Source: Bdellovibrionales bacterium (lineage in GTDB: Bacteria; Bdellovibrionota; Bdellovibrionia; Bdellovibrionales; JAUICD01). Taken from it: DNA of 64,000 bases. The DNA lies in the NCBI GenBank assembly GCA_965262715.1, contig OZ253553.1:2875091-2939090 (forward strand), in the 5' to 3' direction. Of the stretch, positions 13,846 through 33,674 are shown piece by piece (the stretch's first letter is position 1; each line of letters opens with the position of its first letter). Below the pieces are notes generated by a model. That model made no database searches, was not told the origin of the DNA, and saw only the letters and a program-made list of their open reading frames with translations. The translations under genes and the position numbers were made by a program.

Positions 13846-14177
13846 TTGTTATCCCCCTCAAATAACTTTATGATAAAAAGATAAAGTATAACATTTAAAC
13901 AATAAAAATCAATATTCTTGTTAAACAATACTTCGTCAATTTCTCACAATAACCTTATTTTATGTTATGAAGCTCTTTTTATATCAAATGTGTTAAGATA
14001 TCTCACCTAAAGTTTCATTATGAAACAAATTTCTTAAGGTTCATGACATCTTAAAATCTAGAAAGCAAGACATTTAGAACAACAAAACAAGATGGATCCT
14101 TTTTTCTCTATAAAAGTTCTTTCTAGAAGCCATCTCAAAAATAAATATTTGCATTTATTTCATTTCCCTAAAAATAA

Positions 14178-14465
14178 ATTGAAGGTTCAGCTCAGTTAGC
14201 ACTTAAATTCTATCGTAATTCTCAAAAATTACATTTATACAGTCCTCATAAAGACCAATTTAAAAGAGCTGCTTCAAGTATTGTACTTAACTTAGCTGAA
14301 GGCAGTGCTAAACCAACAGCTAAAGATCGCAGAAAAATTTATTATATTAGCCTTGGCTCTTTAAGAGAAGTACAAGCTATATTGAATATGATAGGCCATG
14401 TTGACTTAGCAAAACAGGCAGATCAACTAGGAGCTTATTTATATAAACTATGTCAAAATACTTAA
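14178..14465 (+). pseudogene. Four-helix-bundle (23S rRNA IVP/TIGR02436-like) protein, 5'-truncated; absent from the ORF track
   Basis: Manual translation gives ..QLALKFY..DQFKRAASSIVLNLAEGSAK.TAKDRRKIYYISLGSLRE..; in-frame TAA at 14175 and no ATG. Confidence 0.75.
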
Positions 14466-14468
14466 ATT

Positions 14469-15240
14469 TTATTTGAATTTTACTTTATTTGTAGGACAAA
14501 CAAGATTTTTGTGTATACGTTCAGAAGATTTAACTTCAATGGCAGTGTGCATATCATTACAAATAAAATCAACTTCATAACCAGATGTTGTTCTCCAATA
14601 ATGTATATCTAATTCGGGATTTTTATATTTTTTGTAATTTATAAGTTCCATAAAAATATAATGTTCAAAACTTTTTCCAAAAGCCTCATTTCCTTTATAG
14701 GGTTTTCTTTGAGCTATATAATTGGCAATACCAACATCAAAAAAATAAAACTTATCTGTCAAAACCATTTTTCTATTTTTAGAGGCCCTCCAAGGAGAAA
14801 GACGGTATCCTAAAAAAGTATCCTCTAAAATTTCAAAATATCGACGAACAACTTTAGCACTGATGCCTGTTTCTCTTGCTACATTCGTATAATTTAAAAG
14901 CTCAGAGTTGGTTAAGGCTGCTACTTTTAAAAACTCAGTAAAGGCAGGTATATTTCTTATTGAAGATTCTGATACAATTTCTTCTTTTAAGTAATCAGAG
15001 ACATAAGACCTTAAATCTTTTAAATAATGGGAAGATAAGAAGTGAGAAGGTAAAAGTCCTGTATGTAAAGCTTTTTCCAATAAAAATCCTTTTGTCTCAT
15101 AAAAAGAAAGAGGACCCATTTCAAATCGCCATGCTCTTCCAGCAAGTAAATTAGAACCAGCTCGTCTTAATTTTCTTGCACTAGATCCAGTAAGGAGAAA
15201 TGAAGCAGATTTATTCTCAATAAGCCAATGAACTTCATCA
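14469..15240 (-). pseudogene. AAA+ ATPase/DUF4143 protein fragment
   Basis: The frame extends upstream as LLTGSSARKL..LAGRA; KFYFFDVG, YWRT..EVDF and IEVKS present; Walker A region missing and C-terminus truncated. Confidence 0.8.
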
Positions 15241-16104: not shown

Positions 16105-16203
16105 CGGTTGTCATTTTTTATATATACTAAGGTTTGTAGTAGGCTTATTCACTAGCAGCAGAGGGCCTTTGGCCACCATATCCTAATATAATATTAATGC
16201 CAT

Positions 16204-16437
16204 AGCCTTGTTGCACGAATATTGACGCTATTACATTGGGTTACCATTAGCGTCTTTTGGCAGGCTTGTGAACTAACTCAGGCCAGAGCATTATGAGGTA
16301 AAGATTTTAAAAGAACTTTTATTCTATAATTAATTATAAAAGTAATAGAAATTCATTGCACGGGGGTTGCCTGTTGCTAGTGAATAAGCCTGCCAAAAGA
16401 CGCTGCTAATACATACAAATATTTGTGCAACAAGGCC
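16204..16437 (+). mobile_element. IS903-type MITE, structured family copy
   Basis: IRs AGCCTTGTTGCACGAA / TTTGTGCAACAAGGCC; perfect 19-bp inner stem 16249-16267/16386-16404; core shared with the 37082, 49843 and 60311 copies. Confidence 0.85.
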
Positions 16438-24301: not shown

Positions 24302-24524
24302 AACTTATCCTCCCTATAAAAATAATAAAATTATCCAACTATCAGCAATATTGTGATGTGACATGCTAATGTCAAGGGTAAAAACATCTTTTTTCATAAA
24401 TTTTATCTAGACAAGCAAATATCTTGCCGGAAAACCACAACAAGTCATTCATAGTAAGTCACAGCCTTATTTAAGCTTTAAATCAAATTATAATGACTTT
24501 TCAAAATGATATGATGTGCCATGC

Positions 24525-24974
24525 TGTTTCCCTAAAAATAGTCTGGCCTCTGTATCACTAAAGTGCATCTCGTCTGTGTTTCCCTAAAAATAGTCTGGCC
24601 TCTGGCCACTTTCTGGCAGTAAGCCTGACAGTTTACACTGTCAGCAAATAGCTTACTGCCTAGAAAGCCTGACTATTTTTAGGAGGGAGATACTCTTCGC
24701 TTCTTTACAAAATGTTAAGGAAATTGAGCTAAAGTGATTTTTTAGGAAAAAAGATTCTTCAGTTCTGTTTCACTAAAATGCATCTCGTCTGTGTTTCCCT
24801 AAAAATAGTCTGGCCTCTGGCCACTTTCTGACAGTAAGCCTGACAGTTTACACTGTCAGCAAATAGCTTACTGCCTAGAAAGCCTGACTATTTTTAGGAG
24901 GGAGATACTCTTCGTTTTTTTACAAAATGTTAAGGAAATCGAGCTAAAGTGGTTTTTTAGGAAAAAAGATTCTT
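24525..24974 (-). repeat. Two tandem copies (215-bp period) of a nested-hairpin element plus partial tails
   Basis: Hairpins at 24583-24683 and 24798-24898 are near-identical; the duplication includes the last codons of grxD. Confidence 0.9.
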
Positions 24975-26713: not shown

Positions 26714-28450
26714 ATGAATCATCTAGATGAGATAAGGAAAGATTTAACACATAAGTTTGATGTTTCTCAATTTCAATTTCAAACAGAATGTGATGATGAT
26801 GTTCTGACAATTCCATGCGATCAAGTCTATGGTGTTGTAGAGCATTTTAAAAAAACAAAAAGATTTGATTTCTTGATGGATGTATGTGGAGTTGACTTAT
26901 TAGAGCACCCTCATTTCACGTCATCACAGGCAAATGGTTCTACTCAGTCATCAGATGTCTCACAAAAAGGACGATTTCATGTAGTATATCACTTCTTCTC
27001 ATCTCAGAACTTTCATCGCTTGCGGCTCAAAACAAAATTACCATCTCATCCTAAGGTCAAATCAATTACTCCTTTATGGAAAGGAGCTAACTGGTTTGAG
27101 AGAGAAGCTTATGATATGTTTGGTATTGAATTTGACGGACATCCTTATTTAGAAAGATTGCTAACGCATCATGAATTTAAAGGGCATCCTTTACGTAAAA
27201 ATTACAGTTCAGATCAGCAGCAGCATTGCTATTCTGTTAAGCCACTTCATTTTGAAAACGATGCTACATACATTAAAGACCCTCATAAAAACTTTGTTTC
27301 TTTAAACATTGGACCTTCACACCCCGCCACTCATGGAACTTTAAGGATTATGGCAGAACTGGATGGAGAGGTTGTTCATCGAGCTAATGTAGAAATTGGT
27401 TTTTTACATCGCTGTTTTGAAAAAATGGCTGAGACTCATCATTACAATCAAGTGATTCCCTATACAGATAGACTTAACTATTGTTCTGCTCCAATGAACA
27501 ATGTAGGTTATTGCAAAGCTGTTGAAAGATTGCTAGACGTTGAAGTTCCTCCAAAAGCGCAAGCTATTCGCATTGTTTTGTGTGAACTAAGCCGTATTAT
27601 TGATCACATGGTGTGTATTGGAGCTAATGCTGTAGACTTAGGAGCACTCACAAGCTTTCTTTATTTGTTTAATATGAGAGAGATGGTCTATGAGCTTTTT
27701 GAAAAACTTTGTGGCGCTCGATTGACGGTTTCTATGACACGTGTTGGGGGCATGGCCAACGATCCACCTGATGGTTGGTTTGATGATGTTTTAGAAACAT
27801 TGAAAAAAATTGAAAAAGGCATTGAAGAAATTGATACACTACTAACTCATAATAAGATTTGGATGAAAAGAACAAAAGGGATTGGCCAAATCACAACAGA
27901 AGAGGCTATTGCTTTTGGATACACAGGTCCTTGCCTGCGTTCTACTGGCATGAATTTAGATTTAAGAAAGGTTATTGGCTATTATGGTTATGACCAACTT
28001 GACTTTGATGTACCTGTAGGAACTTGTGGAGACGTATATGATCGCTACTTGGTTCGTTTAGAAGAAATGAGGCAGTCCATTAAAATTATTAAGCAGGTGG
28101 CAAATAATATTCCAGAAGGAGACTTTACCATTCGTGATAAGCATATTGTGCTGCCAGACAAAAAAGATGTTTATGGAAATATTGAAGGTTTAATGAACCA
28201 CTTTATGTTGGTTATTAAAGGATTAAAACCTCCTCAAGGAGAGTTATACGATATGACAGAGGCTGCAAATGGAGAGCTTGGTTTTTATTTGATCAGTGAT
28301 GGAGAAGCAAAGCCTTATCGTTTGAAAGTCAGGCCACCTTGTTTTGCTATTTTTCAATCCTTTGCTAAAGCTATTGAAGGCAGCCTCCTATCTGATGTGG
28401 TTGCCATTCTTGGAAGCATGAATGTTATTGCAGGAGAGCTTGATAGATAA
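26714..28450 (+). CDS. nuoCD: NADH-quinone oxidoreductase subunit C/D fusion
   Basis: EREAYDMFG, GHPLRK, GPSHPATHG, terminal GELDR. Confidence 0.96.
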   Translation: MNHLDEIRKDLTHKFDVSQFQFQTECDDDVLTIPCDQVYGVVEHFKKTKRFDFLMDVCGVDLLEHPHFTSSQANGSTQSSDVSQKGRFHVVYHFFSSQNFHRLRLKTKLPSHPKVKSITPLWKGANWFEREAYDMFGIEFDGHPYLERLLTHHEFKGHPLRKNYSSDQQQHCYSVKPLHFENDATYIKDPHKNFVSLNIGPSHPATHGTLRIMAELDGEVVHRANVEIGFLHRCFEKMAETHHYNQVIPYTDRLNYCSAPMNNVGYCKAVERLLDVEVPPKAQAIRIVLCELSRIIDHMVCIGANAVDLGALTSFLYLFNMREMVYELFEKLCGARLTVSMTRVGGMANDPPDGWFDDVLETLKKIEKGIEEIDTLLTHNKIWMKRTKGIGQITTEEAIAFGYTGPCLRSTGMNLDLRKVIGYYGYDQLDFDVPVGTCGDVYDRYLVRLEEMRQSIKIIKQVANNIPEGDFTIRDKHIVLPDKKDVYGNIEGLMNHFMLVIKGLKPPQGELYDMTEAANGELGFYLISDGEAKPYRLKVRPPCFAIFQSFAKAIEGSLLSDVVAILGSMNVIAGELDR

Positions 28451-28673
28451 GCTTTATACAGAAGAGGGCTAGCAACAGGCTTAAAACTTAAAGGCTTTGA
28501 TATCGAAAACTCTCACTTTTTTACTTCTTAAGGAATTCTACTTACAACTTGAATCCAAAAATCATTATGTAAGTTTTACATCATTATGTAATTTTTACAA
28601 TTTAAGACGTTTATCAATCATATTTATTGATAAATGTTCCTTTTCATGTTATTCACTCCTAATATTACTTTTT
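28329..28673 (+). repeat. 345-bp target-site duplication, left copy
   Basis: Identical by eye to 32758-33102 and abuts the IS terminal CCTGAC. Confidence 0.92.
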
Positions 28674-32601: not shown

Positions 32602-32757
32602 AAAAATAATTTAATGCTTATTAAAAAAAAAGTCAAAATAAAAATAAAAATAATCTGACTTGGTGTGTTACTAGGCACTACATCGAAAACTTACTCCAAA
32701 ATCCTATAACCATCAATGTTACAAAACCAATACCGAACATAAACCGTCGAAGTCAGG

Positions 32758-33102
32758 TCAGGCCACCTTGTTTTGCTATTTTTCAATCCTTTGCTAAAGC
32801 TATTGAAGGCAGCCTCCTATCTGATGTGGTTGCCATTCTTGGAAGCATGAATGTTATTGCAGGAGAGCTTGATAGATAAGCTTTATACAGAAGAGGGCTA
32901 GCAACAGGCTTAAAACTTAAAGGCTTTGATATCGAAAACTCTCACTTTTTTACTTCTTAAGGAATTCTACTTACAACTTGAATCCAAAAATCATTATGTA
33001 AGTTTTACATCATTATGTAATTTTTACAATTTAAGACGTTTATCAATCATATTTATTGATAAATGTTCCTTTTCATGTTATTCACTCCTAATATTACTTT
33101 TT
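32758..33102 (+). repeat. 345-bp target-site duplication, right copy (includes the nuoD 3' end)
   Basis: Identical by eye to 28329-28673. Confidence 0.92.
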
Positions 33103-33170
33103 AAGATGCATAAAACTTATACGTCAGAGGCTTGCCTTGAGAGGCGTAATTCATTTTGGTAAAATAATAT

Positions 33171-33335
33171 GATTTCCTTAACATGATGTAAAAAAACGAA
33201 GGGAATCTCCTTACTAAAATGCATCAAGCTTTCTAGGCAATGACCTATTTGCTGATGGCGTAAGACCATCAGGGTCATTGCCAGAAAGTCGCCAGAGGCT
33301 TGCCTCGAGAGGCGAGATGCATTTTAGTGAAAAAA
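33171..33335 (+). repeat. Nested-hairpin element, diverged copy
   Basis: Leader and bulges match the reverse complement of the 24.6/24.8-kb copies; stems ACTAAAATGCATC/GATGCATTTTAGT, GGCAATGACC/GGTCATTGCC and CTGATGG/CCATCAG. Confidence 0.85.
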
Positions 33336-33660
33336 GACGAGATGCATTTTAGTGAAAAAAGACGAGATGCATTTTAGTGAAAAAAGACGAGATGCATTTT
33401 AGTGAAAAAAGACGAGATGCATTTTAGTGAAAAAAGACGAGATGCATTTTAGTGAAAAAAGACGAGATGCATTTTAGTGAAAAAAGACGAGATGCATTTT
33501 AGTGAAAAAAGACGAGATGCATTTTAGTGAAAAAAGACGAGATGCATTTTAGTGAAAAAAGACGAGATGCATTTTAGTGAAAAAAGACGAGATGCATTTT
33601 AGTGAAAAAAGACGAGATGCATTTTAGTGAAAAAAGACGAGATGCATTTTAGTGAAAAAA
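33311..33660 (+). repeat. Tandem array, 14 x 25 bp (GACGAGATGCATTTTAGTGAAAAAA)
   Basis: Exact 25-bp period with no spacers; the first unit begins GGC. Confidence 0.97.
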
Positions 33661-33674
33661 GAAAGGATGAAAAA

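Follow-up and report, generated by a model that had tools for sequence, protein, structure and literature searches.

Among the described families of short bacterial repeats, those closest to the one reported here are the REPINs and the pneumococcal repeats BOX, RUP and SPRITE, whose properties are summarized below as given in the cited sources. REPINs form clusters that are tandem repeats including flanking DNA, as well as unordered clusters, which are said to arise when a copy inserts into or beside one already present (Bertels and Rainey 2011, PMC3116915), and REPs inserted in other palindromes have been reported (PMC3733652). BOX, RUP and SPRITE combine a tandem-expanding module of variable number with mutual insertion and possible effects on nearby genes (PMC3049150, PMC3184786). 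A further point of comparison is the R2 non-LTR retrotransposon, in which one junction is precise and the other varies, showing microhomology, added bases and loss of target sequence upstream (PMC2718515).

We analyzed a stretch of 64,000 nucleotides (hereafter, the window; G000:C1:2875091-2939090) from the genome of a Bdellovibrionales bacterium (G000, 2.94 Mb, 33.6% G+C, single contig), using one other genome of the genus (G001) as a relative. Copies A, B and C of a ~155-nt folded repeat lie in the window (Table 1). As in the REPIN/RAYT system, this is an extragenic hairpin repeat with hundreds of copies, flank-containing tandem clusters and insertion into existing copies; as in BOX, it is dispersed and modular, with modules that expand in tandem (14, 16, 25 and 56 bp here). 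Unlike a REPIN, it is a branched and bulged three-way junction rather than two inverted REPs, its filled sites lose target DNA, and its arms form polar stacks, which the accessible text of PMC3116915 does not describe. It also differs from REPIN/RAYT in that no Y1 transposase was found in G001, while the only one in G000 is not flanked by copies. Whereas the expanding module of BOX is internal, here the arms stack terminally and are mostly of mixed type, and, unlike in the BOX, RUP and SPRITE comparison set, neither a duplicated target nor a matching IS end was detected. The likeness to R2 is one of footprint only: the present repeat encodes no protein and has no single fixed target, and searches of G001 returned no reverse transcriptase. 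The SDR repeats of Nostocaceae, reportedly described by Elhai in 2008, are said to be tiny mobile nesting repeats with no known enzyme; on that description, the present family is set apart by its ~155-nt length and its covarying three-way junction. In the open literature, that is, outside subscription journals, we found neither this family nor polar arm stacks described.

Here, we propose, with a probability of roughly 0.7, that a 25-bp array upstream of an ankyrin gene and the foreign arms found behind other copies arose as by-products of a dispersed, non-coding repeat that forms hairpins and nests in its own older copies.

Table 1. Positions within the window of elements A, B and C, their arm units and the neighbouring features.
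Feature	Position	Strand	Detail or basis
Element A	24574..24727	-	left arm 24671-24683, own right arm 24583-24595
Foreign arm unit after A	24547..24575	-	arm 24557-24569; 1 mismatch to array unit
Third arm unit after A	24522..24550	-	arm 24531-24543 identical to A's own
Element B	24789..24943	-	left arm 24886-24898, own right arm 24798-24810
Foreign arm unit after B	24763..24790	-	arm 24772-24784; 23/23 match to array including junction
Orphan 3' remnant left by an older copy, with small hairpin and decayed arm, just 5' of C	33125..33163	+	sequence
Element C, whole ~155-nt folded repeat	33170..33337	+	z -8.1
Tandem array, 25-bp right-arm unit x14.0, all exact	33313-33662	+	first unit is element C's own arm
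12-bp spacer from array to ATG, with ribosome-binding-site-like word	33663..33674	+	sequence
Ankyrin-repeat protein gene, 733 aa	33675..35876	+	hydrophobic signal-peptide-like N-terminus (by eye)

A covarying folded repeat in two genomes

Profile searches recovered 475 matches to the repeat in G000, 317 of them near full length, and 1354 matches in G001, with 761 near full length. A covariance model matched 3 of 61 relatives, the third being G004, in which the element lies on three contigs. G004 was rejected as a third carrier: of its element-bearing contigs, the two that were tested share 88-90% identity with G000, against 65-70% for its main contigs, and they are probably contamination from a sister species of G000. 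The sister-species-like contigs are C4 and C11 (L276, L086).

The consensus fold is a three-way junction with bulges, comprising 42 pairs. In an alignment of 39 copies (3 from the window, 34 from G001 and 2 from G004), two-sided changes are present at 30 of the 42 pairs and 98.5% of cells pair; none of 500 shuffles reached the observed level, and slid controls gave 31-47%. Apical loops are mainly GNNA, with GNYA making up 202/558 tetraloops in G001 and 28/182 in G000. Such GNYA loops would suit a folded DNA no less than an RNA. The 3' end of the family is sharp and the 5' leader is not sharply defined. Copies are found at hundreds of unrelated sites, including the inside of a coding gene and a CRISPR array, and they are not strongly biased in how they are oriented to the adjacent genes (52/36/36/31). 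Inspection by eye revealed no preference for one strand with respect to GC skew. An Rfam search returned merely sub-threshold miRNA matches, a pattern scan of metagenomes gave 0 matches, and the linker pattern of the G000 nests was not found in 4 relatives, G001 having other linkers.

Several copies carry or form part of larger structures. The same 86-bp insert occupies one inner-stem position in 8 copies (G000:C1:57485, 57801, 66304, 66620, 87976, 1975583, 1975917 and 2255497). A ~410-bp element with terminal inverted repeats contains a leaderless core of the repeat (G000:C1:1034219, 1090835, 1664146, 1784874 and 2155228), and its right arm is the foreign arm in a 257-bp array at 558528. In a tRNA-Pro-like gene, identified by eye on the minus strand at G000:C1:2823850-2824200, the anticodon arm is replaced by ~150 nt with a diverged repeat core. 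Nested copies also lie at the end of the CRISPR array at G000:C1:2606950-2608560, one of them inside a repeat with a 9-bp duplication; we take this array to have a Cas12a-type repeat.

The array upstream of the ankyrin gene

Element C is composed of a 5' leader stem, a left arm (33213-33225), a long bulged inner stem, two small hairpins and a right arm (33316-33328). Its left arm pairs 13/13 with the right arm, which lies inside the first array unit, in agreement with the initial annotation. The 14 units described there were recovered as 14.0 exact 25-mers, placed 2 bp later than the 33311..33660 given originally, and the distance to the ATG is 12 bp rather than 14. The ankyrin-repeat protein is putatively secreted, judging by eye from its N-terminus. 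A promoter-like match at 33137-33165 overlaps the orphan remnant 5' of C and is weak, with 5 such sites against 3.9 +/- 2.1 in shuffles. Further upstream, an exact 346-bp duplication (28328-28673 and 32757-33102), consisting of the nuoCD end and its 3' flank, brackets two adjacent DDE transposase genes.

Read depth rules out an assembly artefact as the source of the array, a possibility raised when it was first noted. In short-read assemblies, the unit appears as a 55-nt contig, the length expected of a closed loop of the unit, and its depth is 11.1-11.4 times that of the ankyrin contig, where 14 copies should give 12.8, in all three runs of one sample, probably the source. This depth corresponds to about 12-13 array copies, an estimate from contigs that cannot fix the exact count; relative to the upstream contig, the ratio is 8 in one run and 12 in another. 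Through the 55-nt contig, the array end connects to the ankyrin gene with zero differences. One run of another study also contains the array contig, at a lower ratio of ~3-6 times a single-copy depth that is itself merely 2-4. Nor does the 25-mer occur independently of the hairpin family, the other possibility raised at the outset: 73 of its 75 genome matches (at most 4 mismatches) have a same-strand family match no more than 400 bp away, and the remaining 2 look like orphan arms.

The units are head-to-tail and identical, and hence leave no unique spacers of the kind found in a CRISPR array. Perfect head-to-tail units are those of a slippage VNTR, and the array is probably a product of ordinary slippage. 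Other modules of the family, and whole copies, have expanded likewise (a 16-mer x17.9, a 56-mer x5.5, a 14-mer x6.4, a 257-mer x14.3 and a 431-mer x7), which supports this route for the array behind C.

Foreign arms behind elements A and B

The array unit also trails A and B, with 1 mismatch in 20 at 24556-24575 and 23/23 identity at 24768-24790, and A bears a second copy of its own arm, all as noted at the outset. B and A together form a 215-bp tandem duplication. The earlier statement that the foreign arms cannot pair on A and B is nearly right: their predicted pairing with the left arms of A and B amounts to -3.2 to -4.4 kcal/mol, compared with -15.3 kcal/mol for the own arm. The junction that the array shares with both tails is also real, since its 12-mer occurs in the genome only in the array, in A, in B and at one distant locus (position 2438000). 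This restricted distribution suggests that C gained an arm of the same lineage as the A and B tails.

No orphan left half was found upstream of A, B or C. As no host half remains there, the history of these three copies is read from other loci, from which we infer that the foreign arms of A and B are remnants of host copies. Empty orthologous sites for A, B and C were not obtained, groES and the glutaredoxin gene being non-adjacent in G001 and the ankyrin gene not having been found in that genome. Elsewhere in the window, one intergenic region (16134-16436) holds multiple nested inverted repeats of another family.

Right arms stack on the 3' side only

A right arm was counted as stacked when it lay at most 34 bp behind another right arm. 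By this definition, G000, with 412 left and 454 right arms, contains 51 stacked right arms, at 31 loci and with 13 in the array of C, and 0 stacked left arms, while G001 contains 284 and 0, respectively (1047 left and 1354 right arms). The genome-wide listing of arm tails proposed initially therefore found them to be general, polar and mostly mixed. Stacks contain 2-4 arms, and two-arm stacks are of mixed type in 29/32 cases in G000 and 181/191 in G001. Since most other stacks are mixed, C, the one long homogeneous stack, is an outlier; no homogeneous arm array like it was found among 1070 arm runs in G001. Short partial arms of 16-19 nt are stacked as well. On the 5' side, the stacked pieces are truncated left halves, and behind each comes a short leader and then a whole element.

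Stacked arms pair with these upstream halves more often than chance would predict. In G000, 7/12 pair without mismatch with the upstream orphan left arm, against 2.1 on permutation (p 0.0008), and 6/9 do so when foreign arms only are counted (p 0.005), although these nests have one common linker family and may descend from few events; in G001, 23 of 70 distinct cases pair without mismatch against 11.0 on permutation (p 5e-5), and all of these p-values overstate independence because copies are related. Together with the 3'-only stacking, this above-chance pairing suggests that foreign arms are remnants of host copies. Two thirds of the G001 nests fall short of perfect pairing, and 203 of the 284 stacked arms there have no upstream orphan left arm. 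Orphan left halves and stacked arms co-occur, with an odds ratio of 3.0 (p 4e-9) in G001 and 6.4 (p 8e-5) in G000, and the one-sided classes are similar in size (119 vs 102 and 25 vs 17).

The geometry of the nests is regular. Both arm pairs close in 24 intact G001 nests, in last-in-first-out order, and in the 24 perfect nests of that genome the host's small-hairpin loop is where the 3' end of the inner copy attaches, with the left junction varying over ~60 nt. The loop of the small hairpin ahead of the arm is the commonest right junction, and the 26-27-nt spacing that matches it is found in 235/284 stacked arms. Other fixed entry points are also used: out of 34 rows consisting of a left half, an inner copy and a longer 3' remainder, 21 can be read as clean nests with little lost and 13 cannot. 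The element ends and the hairpin loop have a 2-3-nt word in common.

At genome position 1004766-1003994 of G000, a single spacer frame holds two units of one arm type, followed by two units of another type that trail the arm of the first. On the sequence, we read this as visible body replacement, with a new body and the old arm kept. Such replacement, along with free combination of junctions, would account for the imperfect pairing and the missing left halves. In one orthologous nest, the host arm is present in the sister-species contig and absent in G000.

Insertion footprint and search for an enzyme

Target-site duplications, as expected of MITEs, were found in none of 97 single copies and in 0/6 filled sites. 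The flank repeats of the 97 copies equal those of permuted flanks, except for 4 long local duplications, and a 9-bp repeat flanking the nest inside the CRISPR repeat is the single possible exception. The six filled sites, all in a multicopy four-helix-bundle gene of G001, have lost 4, 30, 30, 49, 260 and 282 bp; they represent few distinct junctions, the two 30-bp losses being one event, and the 260- and 282-bp losses may be recombinants instead of insertion scars. Left and right junctions in this gene recombine freely, as expected of exchange across element bodies.

Regarding the terminal inverted repeats of an IS, the element ends are loosely complementary over ~10 bp only. Of the 11 IS types of G000 tried, 9 multicopy types gave clear ends, none of which resembles the ends of the family. 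The Y1 (RAYT) transposase PF01797 has 1 match in G000, which is IS200-like with the nearest copy ~1.8 kb away, and 0 in G001; the Y2 transposase PF04986 had 0 matches in 5 genomes, in a search whose control genomes were blank too, and IS110 and GIY-YIG do not track the family. Profile and tblastn searches, which a very divergent enzyme could escape, gave 3 reverse-transcriptase matches in G000 and 0 in G001. The G000 matches (G000:C1:1928850, 1880284 and 2650741), typed by eye, are two group II intron-type enzymes, one whole and the other with an internal deletion, and a retron-like enzyme extended at its N-terminus. Two further protein families were rejected as partners: the co-occurrence of PF12784 with the element (5, 14, 0, 0 and 1 in G000-G004) is voided by the contamination of G004, and PF04754 also occurs in abundance in G003, a genome without the element. 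Altogether, the searches run found no transposase, reverse transcriptase or matching IS end that tracks the family, which leaves room for pure recombination without a dedicated enzyme.

A four-helix-bundle gene (Avd-like, PF05635) is a lead, and a lead only. In G001, 26/28 ends of this gene are followed by an element start, compared with 124/1508 for other genes; the link holds only in that genome, the corresponding values in G000 being 2/26 and 50/1825. The protein resembles the DGR protein Avd (PMC10053308). The gene is present in many relatives without the element, and its co-occurrence with the element (19, 14, 0, 0 and 19 in G000-G004) was likewise voided by the G004 contamination. In G001, it is multicopy and lies between 7-bp repeat arms (e.g. 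L196:5300-6200 and L124:12100-12950), and the element is also inserted into it. The window itself contains a broken PF05635 gene (14125-14470, plus strand), in which a small-transposon end and an inverted right repeat arm stand in place of the start. It is conceivable, if improbable, that the family is a genus-specific mobile single-stranded element that replaces target DNA, homes on its own hairpin loop and moves with the help of neither a reverse transcriptase nor a known transposase, perhaps as a tail to a heptamer-armed PF05635 cassette; if true, the arm stacks would be a polar record of successive insertions.

Discussion

Nesting of the repeat in its own older copies would proceed from the 3' end. 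A new copy would join just ahead of the host's right arm, retaining this arm as a tail. Its 5' end would join in one of two ways: within the host, which leaves a nest that can be seen, or via homology to the host's 5' stem, in which case the host would have its body replaced and its arm retained, the route proposed for A and B. Left halves would then be parted from tails by homologous exchange between the 150-bp bodies. A would thus be an element trailing two host arms, and B a tandem duplicate retaining one of them. C would have acquired an arm of its own type and, because the gained arm matched C's own, its tail would have become a direct repeat; by the simplest route, slippage or unequal exchange expanded this repeat to 14 units, slippage being able to stretch one two-arm tail to that length. 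The moving intermediate would most likely be a folded single strand. The proposal in the initial annotation that arms are exchanged or added between elements holds insofar as arms do sit on copies with which they do not pair; they are now read as host leftovers after self-insertion, later shuffled, rather than as units gained singly.

The same structures could arise with no dedicated mobilizing step, if gene conversion and microhomology joining repaired breaks at the hairpins from other copies of the family, yielding nests, swapped bodies and copied tails. Bodies swapped within fixed frames and the freely recombining junctions of the multicopy gene fit such repair, as do the absence of a candidate enzyme tracking the family and the short word common to element ends and hairpin loop. 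We nevertheless regard repair as unlikely, since hundreds of copies, sharp at the 3' end, occupy unrelated sites, and the strong covariation (30/42 pairs) suggests that the fold was selected when copies spread. We give much less credence to a polymerase adding arm units at the 3' end, by template switching or by telomerase-like templated addition. Strict 3' polarity, the stacked partial arms and the three reverse-transcriptase matches of G000 are in line with it, and the fixed 3' and variable, target-deleting 5' junctions resemble those of R2 (PMC2718515). However, G001 has five times more stacked arms yet no reverse-transcriptase match, a finding that leaves the templated addition suggested initially unsupported, and the process does not predict pairing of a stacked arm with an upstream orphan left arm. 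The many GNYA loops, too, would fit folded DNA no worse than RNA.

Still more doubtful is the idea that the array is a selected device for tuning the ankyrin gene. The closeness of the array to the ATG (12 bp) and its place behind a weak promoter-like match give it some appeal, as do the prediction that the left arm shifts at equilibrium between the first and last unit, pairing with multiple units, and the depth in the second study, which hints at fewer copies. BOX repeats, too, are reported to affect neighbouring genes (PMC3049150). Yet from 1 to 20 array copies, the predicted unpaired probability stays flat at 0.50-0.53 for the ribosome site and 0.53-0.54 for the ankyrin ATG, and the earlier suggestion that array length could tune ankyrin expression is thus, as far as translation goes, unsupported in silico. 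Equally long perfect expansions exist in other modules at unrelated loci, G001 has no homogeneous arm array among its arm runs and no ankyrin orthologue was found there, and the orientation of the element to its neighbours is without strong bias.

Our preferred reading, nesting in older copies, places the family near known systems without assigning it to any of them. With no target duplication and no matching IS ends, the footprint does not fit MITEs, nor does it fit REPINs as tested, while in its clusters and self-insertion the family works like REPINs and BOX. The array by itself is ordinary tandem expansion. A mismatched arm on a hairpin repeat calls for caution, as it can be a nesting leftover and not a guide or an added repeat. 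Beyond the array, the family gives hundreds of readable insertion footprints in two complete genomes, without a known enzyme, characterized by a fixed 3' junction, target loss, no duplication and a preference for its own hairpin loop. These footprints offer direct assays for the spread of enzyme-less bacterial repeats.
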